From: Nitrososphaerales archaeon
GTDB lineage: Archaea; Thermoproteota; Nitrososphaeria; Nitrososphaerales; JACPRH01
DNA length: 64,000 nucleotides
NCBI GenBank assembly: GCA_030754585.1
Contig: JASMAB010000001.1
Coordinates: 6,523-70,522, forward strand
Reading direction: 5' to 3'
The translations under genes were made by a program, and so were the position numbers. The notes under the pieces are model-generated. The model was not told where the DNA came from and ran no database searches. It saw only the letters and a program-made list of their open reading frames with translations. Of this stretch, positions 6,439 to 64,000 are shown piece after piece; position 1 is the first letter of the stretch; every line of letters starts with the position of its first letter.

Positions 6439-7554
6439 TCACCTTTTAGATAAAACCTCATAAAGGTTTTCCATTTTTGCCATTTCTGTCCGGTGATTTA
6501 GTCTCTTTTCAATGATAGCTTGATTAATTATACCAAATCTGGTTCTTTCTTCTTTATTCTCAAGTAAATAGATGATCTTTTCAGCCAATGATTCAATATC
6601 TTTACTTGTAAAAAGAAAACCATTAACCCCATTCTTCACCCATCTCTTATTATCTCCAAAATCTGTTATAATAACTGGTACACCACAAGCCATTGCTTCT
6701 GCTGTACTTGCTGCCAATCCTGCGTCTGATAAGGATGTAGATACATATATGTCAGCTGAGGCAACATATTTCGCAACTTCCTCGCTCGGGATTGACCCTA
6801 CAAAGTTCACATTCTTAGAGACTTTCAGTTTTTTAGTTAGAGCCCTCAGAAATACCCCTTGAGACCCTTCTCCAACAATTACAAACCTTGCTTTTGGAAC
6901 CTTTTTTAAAACTATTCTTACAGATTTAACAAAGGTTTCGATATTGTAGATAGGTTCAAGATTTCTAAGACTCATAATAATTGATGAATCAATAGCACCT
7001 AATCTTGCTCTTAATCCCATACTTCTTTGCTTTGGATTAAATTTCTGAGTATCTGTTCCAAAATATACCAAATGTATCTTTGAATGAATTGCCCCAAGTT
7101 CATCTAAAGCTTTTATCATATGTTCTGCATCACACGTAATAAGATCAGCTTTTTTCAAAGCATATTTCACCATATATCTGAGTATTCTAAATTGGTCAGG
7201 ATTAATCAAAATATCTGAACCCCAAGTAGTAAGTACCATTGGATGATAATTTACTAACGCTGCAATGAATCCATAGTGCGAAGCATAATGAGCATGCACC
7301 ACATCAGGTTTTTCGTCTGCCAATATTCGTCTAACACCATGGATGGAAACGGGGGAGAACACATATCTAAAAGCAGAATCTGCACTAGTCAAAGGCATTC
7401 GGATTCCACCCATTAGATTATACTGCTTAACACTTATTGTATCATTTATTTCACTTGTTATTGCAAATACGTCATGTCCTCTAAGCTTGAAGTAGTTGAT
7501 CCATCTTTCAGTGTGGCTCGACTTACAGTCAGCAAGATACGCGATTTTCATCAC
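6439..7554 (-). CDS. glycosyltransferase, GT-B fold (GT4-like)
   Basis: 371 aa. The C-terminal segment SLSDAGLAASTAEAMACGVPVIITDFGDN is typical of the GT4 EX7E region. Confidence 0.85.
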   Translation of the reverse strand: MMKIAYLADCKSSHTERWINYFKLRGHDVFAITSEINDTISVKQYNLMGGIRMPLTSADSAFRYVFSPVSIHGVRRILADEKPDVVHAHYASHYGFIAALVNYHPMVLTTWGSDILINPDQFRILRYMVKYALKKADLITCDAEHMIKALDELGAIHSKIHLVYFGTDTQKFNPKQRSMGLRARLGAIDSSIIMSLRNLEPIYNIETFVKSVRIVLKKVPKARFVIVGEGSQGVFLRALTKKLKVSKNVNFVGSIPSEEVAKYVASADIYVSTSLSDAGLAASTAEAMACGVPVIITDFGDNKRWVKNGVNGFLFTSKDIESLAEKIIYLLENKEERTRFGIINQAIIEKRLNHRTEMAKMENLYEVLSKR

Positions 7555-7668
7555 ATCACCATTTTTTTCTAACTGACCATAGATAATAGATGACCCATTT
7601 TAGAACGTTGTGATACTCTAGTAGAACTTGGAATTGTGTTTGACTTTATCGCCAACGCCCTTAAATGA

Positions 7669-9024
7669 ATGTTTTTATCTCAGCATCCCGTGCTGATGCA
7701 CTTTATGAAGAAGGTATTAATCATAACAGATCTGGTTCATGCAACACCTAGGATACCTAGAGTAGCAAAATATTTACCGGAATTCGGTTGGCAACCTATT
7801 ATCTTAACTACACCTTCATATATTGGACATAATCTCGGAATAAATGTCGAAAAGCTAGTTAAACAGAACCGAGTAATAGTAGTACCCTACCGCAATTATC
7901 TTAATCATTTCTTAGATATAACAAAAAAAATCTTTGGTTTTAATCCTCAAAAAAGTATTAGAAGACAAGCAGATAAACAGTTTGGCATTGACTCACCAAA
8001 AACATCTATGATCAGATTCCTCCTCAGGATCGTAAAAGAGGTCTCATACTATCCAGATCAATTTAGAGATTGGCGGAAATCTGCCATAAATGTGTGTAAT
8101 GACCTTATGCTAAAAGAAAACATAGACGCATTAATTAGTAGCTCATCACCAGTTACATCTCATATTATTGCTAAAGAATTTAAACAACAACACAAGATCC
8201 CATGGATAGCGGATCTAAGAGATCTTTGGTCGCAAAATCACAATTACCCATACAGCTCACTAAGGAATGTAATAGATAGAAATATTGAACTACGGACATT
8301 ATCACAAGCAGATACTTTGGTAACTGTTTCGGAACCATGGACAAAGAAATTAACACTACTTCATAAAGATAAGAAAGTATATACTATAACTAATGGATTC
8401 TATCCAGAAGAAAGTGTGAATTCACCAACTAATCTCACATCCAAATTCACAATTACGTATACAGGACAAATTTATGAAGAAAGACAAGATCCATCAAAAC
8501 TATTCGCTGCGCTAAGAGATTTGATTAATGAAAATTTGATCAATCCTCTGGAAATTGATGTAAGGTTTTATGGTAACGAAGTTGAATGGCTGACAAAAGA
8601 GACAGAAAAATATGGATTAACAAAAATAGTGAAACAATATGGGAGGGTCACTAGAAAAGTATCTATTGAAAGACAGAGAGAATCACAACTCTTACTGCTA
8701 CTAAACTGGGAAGATATCAGGGAAAAAGGAGTGTGCCCACTCAAGGTCTTTGAGTACCTTGCAGCACAAAGACCAATAATTGCCACAGGAGGATTTGGAC
8801 ATGATGTTATAGAAAGACTCCTTGATGAAACCAATGCCGGATTCTATGCCAAAAGGGAGACCATCAAGGAGATTCTCAAAGAAGCATATTCAGAATATAA
8901 GCTAAAAGGCGAAGTTGGTTACCGAGCAAGAACAGGGACAATCAATAGATATAGCTACCAGGAAAAAGCAAAGATGTTTGCGCAGATTCTAGATGATTCA
9001 TTAAAAACAAGAAATTATACATAG
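7669..9024 (+). CDS. glycosyltransferase, GT-B fold with enlarged N-domain
   Basis: 451 aa ORF. The likelier start is MKKVLIITD at 7705. The C-terminal PLKVFEYLAAQRPIIATGG is a GT1/GT4-type nucleotide-sugar binding segment. Confidence 0.7.
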   Translation: MFLSQHPVLMHFMKKVLIITDLVHATPRIPRVAKYLPEFGWQPIILTTPSYIGHNLGINVEKLVKQNRVIVVPYRNYLNHFLDITKKIFGFNPQKSIRRQADKQFGIDSPKTSMIRFLLRIVKEVSYYPDQFRDWRKSAINVCNDLMLKENIDALISSSSPVTSHIIAKEFKQQHKIPWIADLRDLWSQNHNYPYSSLRNVIDRNIELRTLSQADTLVTVSEPWTKKLTLLHKDKKVYTITNGFYPEESVNSPTNLTSKFTITYTGQIYEERQDPSKLFAALRDLINENLINPLEIDVRFYGNEVEWLTKETEKYGLTKIVKQYGRVTRKVSIERQRESQLLLLLNWEDIREKGVCPLKVFEYLAAQRPIIATGGFGHDVIERLLDETNAGFYAKRETIKEILKEAYSEYKLKGEVGYRARTGTINRYSYQEKAKMFAQILDDSLKTRNYT

Positions 9025-9092: not shown

Positions 9093-9839
9093 TCAAGAAT
9101 GAGGCTTTTTCTGAGATACCCATTTCTTATACATTGCATCCATCTTGGCAGCTCCCTCTACCAAAAAGTGATTTCTGCCAGTTAGTTTTAGGAAAATATT
9201 TGTATCTTTTGGGAGACATGTACCACCTATGCCATCTCTAGCTTCAAGAATGTTTACATTCCATTTTGTGTTACTAGCTCTTCTGACCTCTTCAAAATCT
9301 AGAGATAGATCTTCACAAACGATTCTTAGTTCCTCTGCAAACGCTATCTCCACAAACCGGTATGTGTTTTCAGTAAGTTTTGAAAGCTCAGCAGCCTCAA
9401 TATTAGAAACAGTATTCACAGGAATAGATAATTCATTATAAAACGTTTTGGCCTGAGATAAAGTATCTTTATCCACCGCTCCAAGAACACGTAATTGTTG
9501 GACACCGTGATTTTTTTGGTCTCCGTCCCAATATCTATGAGGACAATGAGCTATCTTTAGATCATGTTTTTCAGCTAGACTTCTACACAAACCAACCGGG
9601 ACAGTGCTCTCTATAAAAACCAAACTACCTGGACTAATGTTTGCACACACATCCGTGACGTTTTTGGTATTGACACAAATGACATAGATATCAGATTGTG
9701 CTACCGCAGTTGTTGTAGGAAATTCTTTAATGATTAAGGATCTTACATCAACACCGATTACTTGAAAACTTTTTTCTTTAATATGAAGGGCAGCTGGATA
9801 GCCGATAGTACCTAAACCAATTACACAAACTTTCTTCAA
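9093..9839 (-). CDS. short NDP-sugar dehydrogenase (UDP-glucose/GDP-mannose dehydrogenase family) lacking the C-terminal domain
   Basis: 248 aa. It has an N-terminal VIGLGTIGYP Rossmann motif and the catalytic-Cys motif GGTCLPKD. The protein ends about 40 aa after that motif. Confidence 0.7.
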   Translation of the reverse strand: MKKVCVIGLGTIGYPAALHIKEKSFQVIGVDVRSLIIKEFPTTTAVAQSDIYVICVNTKNVTDVCANISPGSLVFIESTVPVGLCRSLAEKHDLKIAHCPHRYWDGDQKNHGVQQLRVLGAVDKDTLSQAKTFYNELSIPVNTVSNIEAAELSKLTENTYRFVEIAFAEELRIVCEDLSLDFEEVRRASNTKWNVNILEARDGIGGTCLPKDTNIFLKLTGRNHFLVEGAAKMDAMYKKWVSQKKPHS

Positions 9840-56676: not shown

Positions 56677-58077
56677 ATGCAGATATCAATAGATAAGCTT
56701 CAAAAAATACTCGAAAAAACAATTCATTCTAGCTATGCAGAAGCAAGGTATCAGCGTAGAGTCAGAAACGAAATAGTGGTAGGTAACGGAGAAGTAGAAG
56801 AAGCAAAATCCATCCGAATTGAAGGAGTAGGTTTTAGAGTTTTATTAAATGGAGCCTGGGGTTTCAGCAGTACGAATTCAGCATTATCCGAATCAATGGT
56901 TGATGCAATAGATGATGCTGTGAAGATGGCAAAGATATCTGCAACTGCCCAGAAGAAAAAATCTAGATTAGTAGAGACAAAACTAGCGAATGGTATTTTC
57001 AAACCCCCAATCAATGATTCACTAGAAGATCATAGCTTGGAGGAGAAAATGACGCTGGTAAGAAAAACCGAGTTGGGTACAAGAGGATATTTTGACACCG
57101 TGAAATCTGCATCATGCAGCTACAGAGAAATAATTGACGAGAAAATCATTGTGACTACAGATGGTGCATCTGTTGAAATATTTAGTTCGAAACCTGAATT
57201 CAGGATAACAGCTGTTGCAGTAAGAAATGGAGACAGAGTTAGTGCAACAGAAACAGCAGGTGTAACTGGGGGGTGGAGAGATTTATTTGAAAAACGAAGT
57301 GCAGAAGAAATGTCTCTGAAAGCAGCTGAGATAGCCAAGAAGCTCCTTGACGCTAAGCATCCAAAGGGTGAACGTTCAAAAGTAATACTGGATTCTGGGA
57401 TGGTTGGATTAATTGCACATGAAGCAGTAGGACACACTGTTGAAGCAGACTTCGTTCTATCAGGTTCTATTGTAAAAGGAAAAATTGGTGAAAAGGTTGC
57501 AAGTGATCTAGTGACACTTGTTGACAGTGGACTCTCAGATATTGTTGGAGGGGCTGCTGGAACTATTCTTGTGGATGATGAAGGAGTATCTGCCGGTAAA
57601 ACAGTGGTAATTAAAGAGGGTATTTTAGAATCTTATCTTCACAATAGGGAAACCGCGGCAGAGTTCGATGTTGAACCCACTGGCAATGCTCGGGCTTTTG
57701 AATATTCAGATGAACCATTAATCAGAATGAGAAACACCTACATCGAGCCGGGTGATTATGAATTAGATGAGATGATTAAAGAGATTGATCATGGATATCT
57801 CCTAAAAGGGCCAAGAAGTGGTCAAGCCGATGCTAATGGTGAGTTCATGTTTGGAGCTCAGGAAGCATATCTTATTGAGAATGGAAAAATTAAGGAACTT
57901 CTGAAAGGAGTAACTGTTAGTGGCAGAGCTCTTGATGTTCTCCAAACTGTCGATGCTCTTGGAAAAGAATTCTCATATGATATTGGTGCAGGTTACTGTG
58001 GGAAAAAACAACTTGCAAAGGTTGATGGAGGAGGCCCATACCTAAGGTGTGAATCATTAATAGGAGGAATTCAATAA
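56677..58077 (+). CDS. tldD: TldD-family metalloprotease
   Basis: 466 aa. It has the HExxxH motif (AHEAVGHTVEAD) and the C-terminal GxC motif (GAGYCGK). Confidence 0.9.
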   Translation: MQISIDKLQKILEKTIHSSYAEARYQRRVRNEIVVGNGEVEEAKSIRIEGVGFRVLLNGAWGFSSTNSALSESMVDAIDDAVKMAKISATAQKKKSRLVETKLANGIFKPPINDSLEDHSLEEKMTLVRKTELGTRGYFDTVKSASCSYREIIDEKIIVTTDGASVEIFSSKPEFRITAVAVRNGDRVSATETAGVTGGWRDLFEKRSAEEMSLKAAEIAKKLLDAKHPKGERSKVILDSGMVGLIAHEAVGHTVEADFVLSGSIVKGKIGEKVASDLVTLVDSGLSDIVGGAAGTILVDDEGVSAGKTVVIKEGILESYLHNRETAAEFDVEPTGNARAFEYSDEPLIRMRNTYIEPGDYELDEMIKEIDHGYLLKGPRSGQADANGEFMFGAQEAYLIENGKIKELLKGVTVSGRALDVLQTVDALGKEFSYDIGAGYCGKKQLAKVDGGGPYLRCESLIGGIQ

Positions 58078-59427
58078 TTGATGATACCTGAAAATGAACT
58101 TGTCGAATCAAGCAGATTTGCAGTTAATACTGCTATTAAAAATGGGGCAGATAGCGCTGAGGCATATAGTGTTTCAACAGTTGAAACCGAAGCATCAATT
58201 GAACAAAATGATGTGAATCTCGGTAAGTTTCACCAAGGATCAGGGATAGGAATAAGGGTCCTAAAAAATGGAGCTCTTGGTTTTTCCTCAGTAAATACAT
58301 TAAATCAAGAAGAAATTATTGAATCTGTAGATACATCCATTAAGATCGCTTCTAGGGGTTCGTTTGATCAATACAATATTCTTCCAACCACGAAAGTTTC
58401 ACAAAAAATATCAGGTATTTATGATAGAGAAGCACAAGATTTCAAATCAGAAGATTCAGTTAAGAATGCTGTTGAGATGCTGAAAACTGCAAGAAGTTAT
58501 GATAATAGGGTAACGGTTGACAGTGGAGCATTCAATAATTCACTAAATTCAATCGCAATAGTGAATTCTAATGGTGTAGAATGTGTAGAAACTATCAGTA
58601 ACTTCACGTGGTATGTTATGGGAATGGCAATTGATGGAAAAGAGGTTTCTAGTTTTGATTTTCAATTTGGTGGGAGCCACCATTTGAAAGATATAGCAGT
58701 AGAGGGCACAGCAAGAAATTTCGCTGAAAATGTGGTGAAATCTCTCCACTCAAAGAAGTGCCAGCCATTCAAAGGAACACTCATCTTGAGCCCACATGCA
58801 GTTGCTGAACTTATTGTACCAACATTTGTAAATTCTATTAATTCGAATAATGTTCAGAAAGGACGCTCCAGTTTTGCTGGGAAAATAGGAAAAGAAATTG
58901 CTTGTAAGGAATTGACAATAACGGATGATGCAACTTGGTCTGAGGGATTGTCTGCTTCCAGTTTTGATCGTGAAGGGGTTCCACATAAGAAATTAACCAT
59001 TATCAATGAAGGCGTTCTAAAATCGTATTTATACAACACCTACACTGCTTGCCGTGATAAAGTAAAAAGCACCGGTCATGCATCTGGAGATGAAGAGTCT
59101 TCACCTGGTGTTGGTTCAACTAATGTTATCTTCAAAAAGGGAAAATTAAATTTTGATGATATCCTAAGTGAAGTTAAGAAAGGAATTTTCGTTACTAGAT
59201 TTTCGGGGAATGTTAATCCTGTTAGTGGTGATTTTTCAGGAGTAGTAAAAGGTGGTCACTTGATAATTAGTGGGGAAAAGATTCATCCGTTAAGGGAGAC
59301 CCTTATTGCAGGAAATATTTTCGAGTCATTACATAAAATTTCAGGTATTTCAAAGGATAGGGAGAAAATATTCAATATCCTTGCACCATACATTAGGGTA
59401 GAAGGCGTTTCAGTTACCAGCGGTTGA
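58078..59427 (+). CDS. pmbA: PmbA/TldE-family protein (TldD partner)
   Basis: 449 aa TldD paralogue lacking HExxxH. It abuts the tldD stop. The ATG at 58081 is likely. Confidence 0.85.
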   Translation: MMIPENELVESSRFAVNTAIKNGADSAEAYSVSTVETEASIEQNDVNLGKFHQGSGIGIRVLKNGALGFSSVNTLNQEEIIESVDTSIKIASRGSFDQYNILPTTKVSQKISGIYDREAQDFKSEDSVKNAVEMLKTARSYDNRVTVDSGAFNNSLNSIAIVNSNGVECVETISNFTWYVMGMAIDGKEVSSFDFQFGGSHHLKDIAVEGTARNFAENVVKSLHSKKCQPFKGTLILSPHAVAELIVPTFVNSINSNNVQKGRSSFAGKIGKEIACKELTITDDATWSEGLSASSFDREGVPHKKLTIINEGVLKSYLYNTYTACRDKVKSTGHASGDEESSPGVGSTNVIFKKGKLNFDDILSEVKKGIFVTRFSGNVNPVSGDFSGVVKGGHLIISGEKIHPLRETLIAGNIFESLHKISGISKDREKIFNILAPYIRVEGVSVTSG

Positions 59428-59463
59428 AAACCGTATATAGTAAATATTCCAATCTTTCGATTT

Positions 59464-59550
59464 GAGGTTCTTCAGGTGTTCAGTGCAGCATCGACGGGCA
59501 ATCTGACCGTAATGCGGGATGAAGAATACGTGCTGAACCCTTGGAACCTC
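59464..59550 (+). ncRNA. candidate structured RNA (GC-rich nested hairpin) upstream of tRNA-Ala; strand uncertain
   Basis: It is 87 nt with 46 G+C (53%) in a far more AT-rich context. The termini GAGGTTC/GAACCTC pair. Inner helices are AGG-GTTCAG/CTGAAC-CCT, GCAT/ATGC and ACGG/CCGT. Confidence 0.3.
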
Positions 59551-59601
59551 ATCTGTTTATTGATGAAACCTTAAATCATAAATGGCAAATGTTCAGCATA
59601 T

Positions 59602-59694
59602 GGGCCGGTAGTTCAGTGGTAGAAATAGTCAAAAAACTGATACAATATCTGCCTCGCACGCGGAAGGTCGGGGGTTCAAATCCCCCCCGGTCCA
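59602..59694 (+). tRNA. tRNA-Ala(CGC) with a 21-nt intron in the D-arm (non-canonical position)
   Basis: The fold is GGGCCGG TA GTTC AGTGGTA GAA[21-nt insert]T A TCTGC CTCGCAC GCGGA AGGTC GGGGG TTCAAAT CCCCC CCGGTCC A. The G3:U70 Ala identity pair is present. Confidence 0.8.
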
Positions 59695-59780
59695 CTTCAT
59701 TATTGAGCATAACATCTCCAAAAAAATATTTTATCCAAACTAATAAAATGCATTTTGGAACAATAATTCCGTAGTAATGT

Positions 59781-60287
59781 CTAAGGGTGCATCCTAAAAT
59801 CTTCTTTTATGGAATCTAGAACAATATGTGTATTTGTTCGTACCACATGACGGAATGCAAGCAGTTTCTTAGTAAACAAGCTTAACTCTTTTCTATTTCT
59901 AAATTTACCTATTATTAATATATCTGCTCTACCAGTAATATCATAAACAGCACAAGTGGAAGATAGTTTCGCTATTTCATTTTCTACTTGTATAAGCTTA
60001 CCGTTTGAAACTATAACTTCAGTAACAGCTGTTAGAGAATACCCCAGCTTCTCATCATCCAAAATAACAGTGTAATTCTGAATTACTCCAGCTTTTTCCA
60101 TCTTCTTAATTCTAGATAATACAGTCCCTACTGCTGCATTAATGCGTTTAGCTATTTCTCGGAAGGATAATCGAGAATCTTTAAGATATTCTTTCAGAAT
60201 CTTACGATCCACTTCATCTATGTCCAAAAGTACCAGAGTCTTAATGAGAAAATCTTTGATATATAGATTTATGGAATATCTGTTCAA
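59781..60287 (-). CDS. Lrp/AsnC family transcriptional regulator
   Basis: 168 aa with the HTH DEVDRKILKEYLKDSRLSFREIAKRINAAVGTVLSRIKKMEKAGVI and a RAM domain. Confidence 0.85.
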   Translation of the reverse strand: MNRYSINLYIKDFLIKTLVLLDIDEVDRKILKEYLKDSRLSFREIAKRINAAVGTVLSRIKKMEKAGVIQNYTVILDDEKLGYSLTAVTEVIVSNGKLIQVENEIAKLSSTCAVYDITGRADILIIGKFRNRKELSLFTKKLLAFRHVVRTNTHIVLDSIKEDFRMHP

Positions 60288-60323
60288 ACATTCAGATAAA
60301 TCATGAATAACAAGACCTTTGAA

Positions 60324-60914
60324 TTATTCCACAAAAATAGCAGAGTCACCCCAACTTTCTTGGATTCTACCATTATCCATATTCACCATTGGAAGATAAT
60401 TATGAAACATGCGAATTGATTTGCCAAGCCTTATTGTAGTAACCTCTATAATAGAACCAGTCCCATGGTTCTTTTCTATTGATGGAATTATAATCTCATT
60501 GAATTTGATGTTAATCTCATCATCAGAAGATCCTTCAATCAGTAGCACTAGTGCAGTATGGCCATCGATTTCAGCGATATGAGATTCATAAATGAACTCC
60601 GTGAAGATTGTAGAAACATTGGGTTCCATTTTTACCTCATTTATTATTTGGTTTTGAGAGATACCGATTTTAAATTTCACAAGATACAGGTGTCTTGCAT
60701 TAAATCTTCCCGTACCGTCTGCACCCATGTTCAAATTAGTATAATAGTTGAGGAGTCCTTTTTCCTCCATCTTCTTTCTCTTACGATTCACAGTTCGAAT
60801 CGGGACACCAGTCATTATACCTATCTGATTGTCGGACAACTTTGGATTTCTGATTAAACTCCGTATTATTAGTATATCTTGAGCATTAAGTTTCATAGTC
60901 ATTCTGATCATCAT
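60324..60914 (-). CDS. Lrp/AsnC-like regulator with divergent, extended C-terminal domain
   Basis: 196 aa. It has the HTH DILIIRSLIRNPKLSDNQIGIMTGVPIRTVNRKRKKMEEKGLL, a RAM-like segment and an extra tail of about 40 aa. Confidence 0.65.
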   Translation of the reverse strand: MMIRMTMKLNAQDILIIRSLIRNPKLSDNQIGIMTGVPIRTVNRKRKKMEEKGLLNYYTNLNMGADGTGRFNARHLYLVKFKIGISQNQIINEVKMEPNVSTIFTEFIYESHIAEIDGHTALVLLIEGSSDDEINIKFNEIIIPSIEKNHGTGSIIEVTTIRLGKSIRMFHNYLPMVNMDNGRIQESWGDSAIFVE

Positions 60915-60983
60915 GTCATATTTAGGTCAATTATACCAAGTATCATCTTTATATATATTAAGAATAAACTTTTAAGTTGTATC

Positions 60984-61190
60984 ATGGTAGAATGACCCAA
61001 TAAAAATCAATTTGATATTGCAGTTGAACAATTTGATAGAGCTGTGAAACTTATGAAACTAGAGGGGAATGCTATTACTTTACTTAAGTGTGAAACTGTT
61101 AGTAAATATCAGGTGGATATGGGGAATGGAGTCTACATTTCAGCCATTGGTAAAGTTGTTGATGCTATGAAGATCAGAAGATGGTTCTGA
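60984..61190 (+). pseudogene. glutamate dehydrogenase relic (premature TGA at codon 4 plus loss of the whole central part)
   Basis: The in-frame reading is MVE*PNKNQFDIAVEQFDRAVKLMKLEGNAITLLKCETVSKYQVDMGNG|VYISAIGKVVDAMKIRRWF*. The first part resembles a GDH N-terminus and the last 19 aa resemble a GDH C-terminus. Confidence 0.6.
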
Positions 61191-61461
61191 TTTAGTACGT
61201 GCCCATAATAAGTTTGTTAAGATATATATTGATTCAACCCATCATATTCTTTAAACATATGTTAAGATTGCTGGGTGATTAGTTGTTACTTCTTCAGCAT
61301 CGTTGTCTTAAATCCCCTTTGCATTTGCAGTTGTGAGAAGAAAAAAAGCATGAATATTAAATGCGTTACTAATAGTTGCTCTGAGAGTTGTACGATCGAA
61401 TTAATATTTGTTTAAAGAATTTTGAATCCAGTAATCTACAAACTTATCTGCAACTAATGAT

Positions 61462-62487
61462 GTGGTTCCACCAGTTTTGAATAAGCCCAGAATATATATT
61501 ACACGTGAGATACCCGCGAAAGGATTAGAACTGCTATCAAGATGCTGTGATATCACAATGCATCGTGGGAAGGAGCCGCCGAGTCGGGAAGATATACAGA
61601 TTAACATTCAAGGGAAAGATGGATTGCTTTGTATGCTCACGGACAAGATTGACTCCGAAATTATCAAAACTTCTGACAAATTGAAAGTTATTTCATCATT
61701 TAATGTTGGAGTAGATCATATTGACACCATCGAAGCAACTAAAAGGGGCATCTATGTCACGTATACACCTGGAGTACTAACAAATGCAACTGCGGATTTG
61801 GCATTTGCTCTTATGATGTCAGCTGCACGACGGATAGCAGAGGGGGATAGAAATGTCAGAAATGGTAGTTGGAGAGGGGGATGGGCTCCCAATATGCTTC
61901 TTGGAGAAGGAGTATACGGTAAAACTCTGGGAATTATAGGATTAGGGAGAATAGGCACTGCGTTAGCTGAAAGGGCTTCAGGTTTCAAAATGAAAATTGT
62001 GTATTATAACCGAAATCGGTTACCTAACAAAGAGAAGAAACTCAATCTGGAATATAGGTATCTCGAAGATCTTCTAAAAGAGAGTGATTTCATCTCATTA
62101 CATGTTCCTCTTACAGATGAAACTCATCACCTAATCGACAGTCAGAAGTTAAAGAAAATGAAAAGAAATGCAATTCTGGTCAACACAGCCAGAGGCCAGA
62201 TTGTGGATGAAGATGATTTGGCTGATGCATTAGAGGGGGGTTGGATATCAGGAGCAGGTATTGACGTTTTTTCATCAGAACCGCTTCCTGCAGATAACCG
62301 TCTATCTCAGCTAAAGAATGTAGTGTTGACCCCACATATAGGCAGTGCAACTTATCACACAAGAAACTTAATGTGTGAAATTTCAGCTATGAATTTGCTC
62401 GGAGTATTGAAAGGAGAGAATCCTCATTATCTCTTCAACATTGAAGTGATGAAGGTAAGGTCCTTAGATTCAATAAAGATGATCTAG
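61462..62487 (+). CDS. D-isomer-specific 2-hydroxyacid dehydrogenase (glyoxylate/hydroxypyruvate reductase-like)
   Basis: 341 aa. Motifs GIIGLGRIGTALAERA, NTARG and TPHIGSAT. GTG start. Confidence 0.9.
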   Translation: MVPPVLNKPRIYITREIPAKGLELLSRCCDITMHRGKEPPSREDIQINIQGKDGLLCMLTDKIDSEIIKTSDKLKVISSFNVGVDHIDTIEATKRGIYVTYTPGVLTNATADLAFALMMSAARRIAEGDRNVRNGSWRGGWAPNMLLGEGVYGKTLGIIGLGRIGTALAERASGFKMKIVYYNRNRLPNKEKKLNLEYRYLEDLLKESDFISLHVPLTDETHHLIDSQKLKKMKRNAILVNTARGQIVDEDDLADALEGGWISGAGIDVFSSEPLPADNRLSQLKNVVLTPHIGSATYHTRNLMCEISAMNLLGVLKGENPHYLFNIEVMKVRSLDSIKMI

Positions 62488-64000
62488 TGATCTCGCTCTT
62501 CTTTCTCATATATTTTAACTAATGTTTGTAAGGATTTCCCAAAATATTTCAAGAATATTTTCTCGTCATAAGTTTCATCTATCAATGCCTTGGATAACTC
62601 TCTAATGATCTCAGGATGGAGTTTTTCGAGGAACATCAAAAAATGAGCAGATGTTTGAAAAGCACCTAACGCCTTGCCTTCCTCAAAATGAGCTTTACTT
62701 CCAAGAAATGTTCCCTTAGCATCCCTCTGGAATCCCAGATTATCTCTAACAAAATCTGCGATTCCTTCAATCAGCCAAGATGTGTAACTATCGTATCTAG
62801 GTGCCCATAGTATTGCATGATCAATTTCGTGAACAATCGCACCATCATCTGCATCTCGGCTTCCATATACTTCTGCTATTTTATCGAAATGATCAAGGTT
62901 CAGGAATATAGTCTTCCCTTCAGTAGCTGCAGGCCATTTACGATTACGGGTGAGAATAACATTAAGAACTTGCTCTGGATTTCTCCCTGTATGTATTGAT
63001 CTCACCTTGGGTATGGTATTTTCAGCTAAAGAAATAACGTGCATTGCATATTCTTTTTCTGATAGAAAATTTGAGTAATCAACTTTACAATTTTTTCCAA
63101 TTAATATCGCTTCTTGATACTCTAAAGCGTTTGGTTTACCTCTGAGTTTTATCATAACTTCCTCTTTAGTTAACCCAGCAGCTATACTTAGATAATCAAA
63201 AAAGTCCTTACCACCGACAACTTTTGTCCCTTTTTCCCTTACTGCATCAACATATTCCTTGTAATCGTCAATTAGTTTTTGAAAACCCTGATCTGGAATA
63301 ACTATCTTCCCGAATTTCTCATCCACCGCGATGTCGATCTTACCGGAACCCTTCTTTGGGTGAATTCCGCCAACTAAACCAGCCAAACCACTTTTCATCT
63401 CAATCTTCCCAGTCATACAGACATCTGGGCTTAGGGATATATTCCAGATAGCAGACGCGATTGAAACTGCGATTGCTAAACCTGCAGATGGCCCCCAAAG
63501 CTTGAGATCCTCCCTATTAGATCCTTCTGTGGGTGATATTATGTGAACATCTATATCATAATTGTTTATGTTCTGGTGGTACCCTCTAAGAAATTCTACT
63601 GCAATTTTTGCACTTTCCTTTACAGATTCCGTTACCGTTCCCAAGATAAGTAGGTTTTCGCTTCTTCCAGACCGTGGAAAAATGTTAGATTCAACTATTA
63701 TTATTAACCCGCGTCGTTCATCCTCACTTTCCGCAGTGGCTAATCCATAGACTTTCCCTATCTCAGGTCCTTTACCTCTGTAGATCCTTTGCATCTCTTT
63801 CAGTTCTTCAAAGTCCTCACTTTTCACTGCCAGTTCAAAAGCCCTTTCTAAATGATGTAAAGTCAATGGGTATGACGCTGAATCGTGATATGCTGCAGCT
63901 ACTCTTTGGTACAGAGTTTCTATTTTTACTTTTTGAGTTTTGGCCAGATTCTTAAGGTAGACAAGCTGCTCTCCGTAATTCTTCCTGATTGAACTGATTT
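62484..64000 (-). CDS. fusion protein: Lon-type S16 protease domain + BSP-like (HExxH) peptidase domain; N-terminus outside window
   Basis: The frame stays open upstream of the listed TTG (63866) to the window edge. The Lon_C motifs are GKVYGLA, WGPSAGLAIAVSIASA (Ser) and GGIHPKK (Lys). The C-terminal half has VHEIDHAILW and WLIEGIADFVRDNLG. Confidence 0.75.
   Translation of the reverse strand, partial: ISSIRKNYGEQLVYLKNLAKTQKVKIETLYQRVAAAYHDSASYPLTLHHLERAFELAVKSEDFEELKEMQRIYRGKGPEIGKVYGLATAESEDERRGLIIIVESNIFPRSGRSENLLILGTVTESVKESAKIAVEFLRGYHQNINNYDIDVHIISPTEGSNREDLKLWGPSAGLAIAVSIASAIWNISLSPDVCMTGKIEMKSGLAGLVGGIHPKKGSGKIDIAVDEKFGKIVIPDQGFQKLIDDYKEYVDAVREKGTKVVGGKDFFDYLSIAAGLTKEEVMIKLRGKPNALEYQEAILIGKNCKVDYSNFLSEKEYAMHVISLAENTIPKVRSIHTGRNPEQVLNVILTRNRKWPAATEGKTIFLNLDHFDKIAEVYGSRDADDGAIVHEIDHAILWAPRYDSYTSWLIEGIADFVRDNLGFQRDAKGTFLGSKAHFEEGKALGAFQTSAHFLMFLEKLHPEIIRELSKALIDETYDEKIFLKYFGKSLQTLVKIYEKEERDH

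Follow-up and report, generated by a model that had tools for sequence, protein, structure and literature searches.

Archaeal-type hexameric glutamate dehydrogenases (GdhA) are recognised by the Pfam families PF02812 and PF00208 and by the NCBIfam model NF040817 (GdhA_Arch), and structures of relatives were solved from Thermotoga maritima (1b26), Thermococcus litoralis (1bvu) and T. profundus (1euz). The glutamate dehydrogenase gene gudB of Bacillus subtilis 168 is silenced by a lesion consisting of a 9-bp direct repeat; it is of full length and reversibly cryptic. Heterotrophic marine Thaumarchaeota (HMT) are reported to have genomes of about 1 Mb and to show marked gene loss, which includes genes of amino-acid metabolism (PMC7300363). 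The locus described here lies in a 64-kb window, which is the whole stretch of DNA that was analysed. It very probably carries a decaying unitary pseudogene of gdhA at the original chromosomal position, between a gene for an Lrp/AsnC-type regulator and gyaR. As such it is a known kind of feature, a routine pseudogene.

The gene content of the window is archaeal (aIF2-gamma and aIF5B are present), and positions 58000–64000 are AT-rich with about 30–44% G+C. The organism is known from marine metagenomes only (Tara, Malaspina, JGI) and its nearest named relatives are Nitrososphaerales MAGs. A tRNA gene of 94 nt (59602–59695, plus strand; 50.5 bits with Rfam), for which ARAGORN assigned no anticodon, may contain an intron. 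On the minus strand an ORF of 248 aa (9093–9839) matches NDP-sugar dehydrogenases at profile positions of about 76–289 out of 413 and in a further short N-terminal stretch. The next gene leaves no space for the C-terminal domain, and this ORF may be a second truncated gene.

Similarity of the relic to glutamate dehydrogenase

The relic occupies 207 bases on the plus strand (60984–61190) in one frame, and translation of 60984–61193 gives MVE-stop-PNKNQFDIAVEQFDRAVKLMKLEGNAITLLKCETVSKYQVDMGNGVYISAIGKVVDAMKIRRWF-stop. Codon 4 is a TGA (60993–60995) and the terminal stop codon is located at 61188–61190. The frame thus comprises 68 codons with a TGA at codon 4, compared to about 410–450 uninterrupted codons in a functional glutamate dehydrogenase (GDH).

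Searching 177,635 PDB sequences with the relic peptide by phmmer yielded seven GDH chains and one weak match to avidin (E = 1), the best match being the enzyme of T. maritima (1b26, E = 1.9e-5). Residues 5–35 of the relic align to GDH residues 2–32 and residues 40–67 to residues 388–416 (approximately), so that the alignment is collinear and skips about 350 residues. When an intact GDH was used as tblastn query against the window, the only match was found at 61098–61184 (55% identity). No Pfam domain matched the relic peptide, but this silence was expected and is uninformative, as hardly any part of the surviving pieces falls within the two ELFV models. The dimerisation/catalytic domain (ELFV_dehydrog_N) with the GGGKGG catalytic-lysine loop is absent from the relic and falls within the deleted residues 44–392. 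The NAD(P)-binding domain (ELFV_dehydrog) spans residues 191–423 of an intact orthologue, and only the last 33 residues of the protein survive in the relic.

For a quantitative comparison four intact orthologues were each reduced to a "virtual deletion product", composed of the 28 N-terminal residues from the NQxD motif onwards and the last 33 residues. The relic is identical to these products at 31–35 of 61 positions, while 100,000 shuffles of the relic never gave more than 13. The 5′ piece, counted from the NQxD motif, accounts for 15–18 identities in 28 residues and the 3′ piece for 15–17 in 33. Collinear similarity to the GDH termini and an intact gdhA at the orthologous position in relatives, which is presented below, were the two features by which descent from gdhA was judged, and both were found. 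To judge from its sequence, the relic is a descendant of the GdhA family and not a functional member of it.

The 5′ piece (60984–61088, plus strand) contains the start codon and codons 1–35, corresponding to residues 1–43 of the orthologue in locus L099. The 3′ piece (61089–61190, plus strand) contains codons 36–68 together with the original stop codon and corresponds to orthologue residues 393–425. Alignment with four orthologues revealed an N-terminal block running without gaps from NQFD to LLK35 (..[IV]LR in the orthologues) and an equally ungapped C-terminal block from C36 to the stop codon. Because the two blocks meet at K35/C36, the deletion junction was placed at 61088/61089 on the plus strand. 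A second haplotype of the locus (haplotype B, see below) has a W as residue 36, matching the conserved W ([ED]VW) at the start of the C-terminal block in three of the four orthologues. The deletion comprises about 1,047 bp (349 codons; residues 44–392 in L099 numbering) and has taken away the dimerisation/catalytic domain and almost the entire NAD(P)-binding domain.

The earlier note on this DNA, made from the sequence alone, had read the same frame with a TGA at codon 4, and translation confirms this reading. Its proposed resemblance to the GDH termini, for which a similarity search had been suggested as a check, was borne out by the phmmer (E = 1.9e-5) and tblastn matches. Its estimate of about 350 missing codons agrees with the 349 found here (L099 numbering). 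Both termini have survived as proposed, but with 35 and 33 codons instead of 50 and 19 amino acids, and the junction had been placed at 61130/61131, about 40 nt downstream of its actual position.

Two other alignments were considered and rejected. The stretch VDMGNG resembles the N-terminal PVxMDDG motif, but KYQVDMxxG aligns without gaps to the C-terminal KY[KN]V[DN]MRQG of the orthologues, whereas an N-terminal alignment requires gaps and matches fewer residues. BLAST aligned the relic in one piece to the C-terminal part of GDH (relic residues 2–67 to GDH residues 363–426). This alignment was dismissed because residues 7–35 have 62% identity to the N-terminus, but show only weak similarity to the internal segment. 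Given the divergence, no microhomology could be recovered convincingly at the junction. A 9-bp repeat (TGTGAAACT), the second copy of which begins at the junction, probably reflects chance, since it is absent from haplotype B.

Gene order in relatives and decay in three haplotypes

A word-indexed protein search with the relic returned two entries only, both of them miscalled ORFs of the relic's own locus, and relatives were therefore reached via the neighbouring regulator. In locus L099 the genes are arranged in the order AsnC (148 aa, minus strand), HTH/Lrp-like regulator (192 aa, minus strand), gdhA (425 aa, plus strand) and gyaR (336 aa, plus strand). This is the order of the window, except that a complete gdhA stands where the window has the relic. 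A search of relatives for an intact gdhA flanked by the Lrp and gyaR orthologues had been named beforehand as a test of the proposed gene loss, and L099 gives a positive result. Three further loci (L016, L106 and L108) carry an intact gdhA in divergent orientation to the same regulator, and the intact copies have a length of 417–425 aa. The copy in L016, which is near-identical to that of L099, contains ELFV_dehydrog_N (1e-55) and ELFV_dehydrog (1e-82), and the intact orthologue matches GdhA_Arch with 3e-175. Directly downstream of the L016 gene, where L099 has gyaR, a DDE transposase gene is located (DDE_Tnp_1_5; L016 2–769, minus strand).

In the window gyaR (61462–62487, plus strand) encodes a glyoxylate reductase-like D-2-hydroxyacid dehydrogenase according to Pfam and NCBIfam (PRK13243, 429 bits), and in the ancestral arrangement it is the downstream neighbour of gdhA. 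By the annotated ends at 60914 and 61462 the distance between the regulator gene and gyaR is 547 bp, in agreement with a gap of 550 bp that had been noticed earlier. The gap consists of the divergent promoter region (69 bp), the relic (207 bp) and a spacer of 271 bp (61191–61461, plus strand). The gene order of the relatives and a spacer close in length to the gdhA-gyaR spacer of L099 (298 bp) fully account for this gap. Genes for an Rce1-like and a CBS protein are found between gdhA and gyaR in L017 and L106; no remnants of them were found in the window.

Locus L017 has gdhA at the same position (6760–7950, minus strand), with an in-frame deletion of 36 aa between two KGG motifs by which the GGGKGG loop is gone. 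Either the gene of this MAG was inactivated independently, as a second case, or the assembly is wrong. In a neighbour-joining tree of the regulator the window, L001, L095, L097 and L015 form one clade, which is sister to the gdhA-bearing loci L099 and L017. Within this clade the window, L001, L095 and L015 are devoid of gdhA, while L097 is uninformative as its contig extends for only 254 bp upstream of the regulator. From the topology both one ancient loss of gdhA and several losses would be possible.

The relic itself was recovered in three haplotypes. Haplotype A consists of the window and six independent metagenome contigs (L009–L014), which are identical to the relic of the window base for base, including the TGA. 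Haplotype B is represented by nine contigs (L001–L008 and L102), of which L102 stems from a later metagenome DNA scan and the other eight carry the database protein P0002 (see below). The relics of A and B differ at 23 of 186 sites (87.6% nucleotide identity, about 12% divergence), on both sides of the junction. Haplotype B has the same junction as A, TGG at codon 4, and a deletion of 21 bp (seven codons) between the copies of a 9-bp direct repeat (CAATTTGAT). In the window the two copies are present at 61008–61016 and 61029–61037 (plus strand), and haplotypes B and C have lost one copy along with the intervening 12 bp. Haplotype C (four independent contigs; L095, L103, L104, L105) shares the 21-bp deletion with B and has GGG at codon 4. 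A second deletion extends from the middle of the relic to the last 42 codons of gyaR, so that gyaR is lost as well and 230 bp are left between the Lon/BSP gene and the regulator (L095 5774–6000). In the more distant lineage of L015 (regulator 77% identical) about 20 N-terminal gdhA codons (MDNRLSMNQVKIAVEQLNR...) are followed by an early stop (L015 7664–7986), and this stub adjoins an intact gyaR. Disabling lesions (the 349-codon deletion and the TGA), together with lesions which are not shared across related lineages, are as expected of a pseudogene.

These differences show an order of events. A single deletion within the gene, in frame and about 1,047 bp long, joined codon 35 to former codon 393. 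The remnant then drifted without purifying selection and eroded in lineage-specific ways: haplotype A gained the TGA at codon 4, B and C lost 21 bp by slippage between the CAATTTGAT repeats, and haplotype C next lost the DNA from the middle of the relic to the last 42 codons of gyaR. As the deletion removed both catalytic domains, no GDH activity can remain. The junction is common to A and B, so that the deletion must be older than the separation of the three haplotypes. The gene loss proposed in the earlier note is supported, but it was not very recent, as it preceded the separation of all three haplotypes.

The divergent regulator and its surroundings

The gene upstream of the relic (60324–60914, minus strand, probable start at 60896) encodes an Lrp/AsnC-type regulator (Pfam HTH_24, 3e-7), which is intact and under purifying selection. 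Its AlphaFold2 model has a pLDDT of 80, and the top matches of the model in Foldseek were full-length Lrp/AsnC proteins with a TM-score to the target of 0.7–0.76, among them PH1519 and ST1022, the latter including its complex with glutamine. The predicted fold combines a winged HTH with a C-terminal RAM-like beta-alpha-beta-beta-alpha-beta domain, as in Lrp/AsnC proteins. Pfam AsnC_trans_reg did not match the regulator, about 35 extra C-terminal residues were unmatched, and none of the NCBIfam models matched. A PDB profile search covered the N-terminal wHTH region, but not the C-terminal part of about 130 residues. A near-identical copy of the regulator (MDP6575277.1; P0003 cluster, 75.9-kb contig) is labelled Candidatus Peribacteraceae bacterium at NCBI. 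Given the archaeal gene content of the window, this is probably a binning or labelling error.

Of 80 genome loci from archaea and Verrucomicrobiota (L015–L094), 60 have glutamate synthase genes at a distance of no more than 8 kb from the homologue of the regulator. The two genes are divergent in the archaeal loci inspected and co-directional in the Verrucomicrobiota loci inspected. Furthermore, regulator homologues adjoin gdhA in the sister clade of the window, and in L097 (regulator 78% identical) a split GOGAT lies 1.6–5.2 kb from the regulator. This suggests that the family is a candidate for an uncharacterised regulator of glutamate synthesis, which in the window has outlived its neighbouring target.

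A TATA-box-like element (CTTTATATATATT; 60947–60959, plus strand) about 36 nt upstream of the ATG of the relic was predicted as promoter. The same position reads CTATAAAT in the loci classed with intact gdhA (L017, L106, L108) and in the stub locus L015. All relic-bearing loci have retained the TATA-like element, and likewise a block (CATATTTAGGTCA) just upstream of the regulator gene. With promoter and start codon looking intact, the relic stub may still be transcribed. The deletions all spare the first 17–35 codons of the relic, most simply because a deletion that reached into the shared divergent promoter would harm the regulator gene, which is probably still needed; as only two or three events are involved, this points only weakly in that direction.

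Downstream of the relic the spacer harbours nested inverted repeats (61208–61217/61438–61447 and 61246–61265/61401–61420), of which the inner one has arms of 20 nt that are 90% complementary. Specific to the clade of the window, the repeats are conserved in haplotype B as well, but L099 and L015 lack them in their spacers. The RNA fold has a z-score of −2.1. No Rfam family matched the spacer, and further copies of the repeat arms, such as a repeated element (MITE) would have, were found neither in the window nor in 108 loci.

Selection, alternative readings and comparison with known systems

Between haplotypes A and B the relic has a dN/dS of 1.18, a value based on 23 substitutions (19 nonsynonymous, 4 synonymous) in two haplotypes. 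A value of 0.26 or lower was rejected (P = 0.002), while a value of 1 fits the data (P = 0.52). Within the limits of this small sample of 23 substitutions the relic is free of purifying selection, as expected of a pseudogene. The same comparison yielded 0.26 for the regulator and 0.15 for AsnC, and gyaR is 99.7% identical, but comparison with the neighbouring genes is imperfect because of a mosaic (recombinant) local history. This history is deduced from a divergent island in near-identical flanks: about 750 bp (60775–61524) comprising the relic, the spacers and the 5′ end of the regulator gene show 9–11% divergence from L002, whereas the flanking gyaR and Lon/BSP genes mostly differ by 0–2%, with one gyaR bin at about 5%.

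Two database "proteins" are derived from the relic. P0001 (74 aa; L009–L014) corresponds to the exact DNA of the window on contigs of about 500–640 bp. It was called with genetic code 4 (TGA as Trp), reads through two TGAs and does not translate under the standard code. P0002 (84 aa; L001–L008) is a standard-code ORF in eight contigs of the sister population, the first 23 residues of which are spurious since a 2-bp indel fuses an upstream frame. Judged by their reading frames, both are gene-calling artefacts.

Some features would nevertheless be compatible with a genuine small gene, in which an ORF of 61–84 aa assembled from both GDH termini is kept as a functional micro-protein. P0002 was called in eight independent contigs and is correct in the standard code, the frame across the junction is preserved, and the promoter-like element and the ATG are retained. 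Haplotype B has an open frame of 61 codons with start, stop and promoter-like element intact, from which a peptide may be translated, and this counts against a pseudogene. The same holds for the in-frame nature of the deletion, which had a one-in-three chance of arising but would also be expected if the product mattered. We regard a functional micro-protein as very improbable, however, since the copy in the window has a TGA at codon 4, the dN/dS is 1.18, a 7-codon deletion sets haplotype B apart, and most of the ORF is absent in haplotype C and L015. In addition, the 23-residue N-terminal extension of P0002 is due to a 2-bp indel only, and P0001 is a code-4 miscall through two TGAs. An equally short, conserved ORF in relatives had been named in advance as the observation that would speak for a small gene. 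P0002, with its 84 aa, is formally such an ORF, but no conserved small gene emerged: given the dN/dS, the 21-bp deletion and a frame that is truncated or gone in sister haplotypes, P0002 is the same relic. An assembly or binning artefact, with a chimeric or collapsed contig falsely joining the ends of an intact gdhA, deserves mention because the material is uncultured and one cluster member of the neighbouring gene bears a bacterial (Peribacteraceae) label, a sign that binning errors do happen here. Identical junctions in 15 further contigs (six of haplotype A, nine of haplotype B), obtained in different projects and with different assemblers (Tara, Malaspina, JGI, NCBI), and a divergence of 12% between A and B on each side of the junction render such an error hardly conceivable.

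A third reading, which is compatible with a pseudogene, concerns the relic or at least its first 50–100 bp. This part could be kept as regulatory DNA, belonging to the bidirectional promoter or operator of the regulator gene, which would account for the end points of the deletions and for the persistence of the stub. Indeed, the ATG and at least about 17–20 codons are kept in all four decayed versions (window, L001, L095 and L015), conservation of the block CATATTTAGGTCA and of the TATA-like element extends from the window to L015, and the regulator is under purifying selection. However, with two or three independent deletions the clustering of their left end points is weak evidence, and due to the substitutions and the 21-bp deletion in the 5′ piece no conserved operator is visible in the coding stub. 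We therefore consider a retained operator unlikely, and the reading as a pseudogene of gdhA is the one followed below.

The loss of gdhA is consistent with stepwise genome reduction in a marine Nitrososphaeria lineage which is known only from metagenomes. Only its origin from marine deep-water metagenomes, its Nitrososphaerales-labelled relatives and an E1 component of a 2-oxoacid dehydrogenase point to HMT, and the window would fit the HMT picture of genome reduction. Within the 64-kb window tblastn with the intact GDH and three GOGAT subunits detected no second GDH or GOGAT, and Pfam scans of 40 further large ORFs revealed no GS, Amt or GOGAT; as the genome has about 1 Mb or more, absence from the window says little about the whole genome.

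As a tentative and rather doubtful extension, haplotypes and sister states might be read as a natural time series of erosion, in which GDH was given up with no second copy and the Lrp-like regulator linked to glutamate synthesis was kept. If true, the series would begin with the full relic, continue with the relic shortened by 21 bp and end with a stub and the loss of gyaR, in an abundant deep-ocean archaeon. It would also imply a shift in how the cells make or consume glutamate, and would suggest that a widely conserved, uncharacterised regulator of glutamate synthesis senses amino acids. The main practical value of the locus lies in annotation, as neither P0001 nor P0002 should be treated as a gene. 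Moreover, it documents the loss of a syntenic gdhA in a marine Nitrososphaeria lineage, with successive stages of decay caught in wild populations, which might be used as a marker in population genomics and in studies of genome reduction by deletion. More promising as a lead is the divergent Lrp/AsnC regulator, which has remained under selection after gdhA died.

Compared to the archaeal-type hexameric GdhA, the pieces of the relic are collinear with the extreme N- and C-termini of the family. In contrast to the enzymes, about 82% of the protein is missing from the relic; the glycine-rich catalytic-lysine loop and the dinucleotide-binding fold belong to the missing part, and codon 4 is a stop. 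Its history resembles that of deletion-type unitary pseudogenes of reductive genomes, in which likewise a single-copy gene is deleted, decays neutrally and is trimmed stepwise. As in pseudogenes of that type, different stages of decay coexist in related populations of the lineage of the window. By analogy, gudB of B. subtilis 168 would be a further parallel, as a GDH gene was inactivated in a lineage keeping other routes to and from glutamate, and short direct repeats take part in one of the lesions, here the 21-bp deletion between the copies of CAATTTGAT. Unlike gudB, which can return to function, the gdhA relic is irreversibly destroyed.
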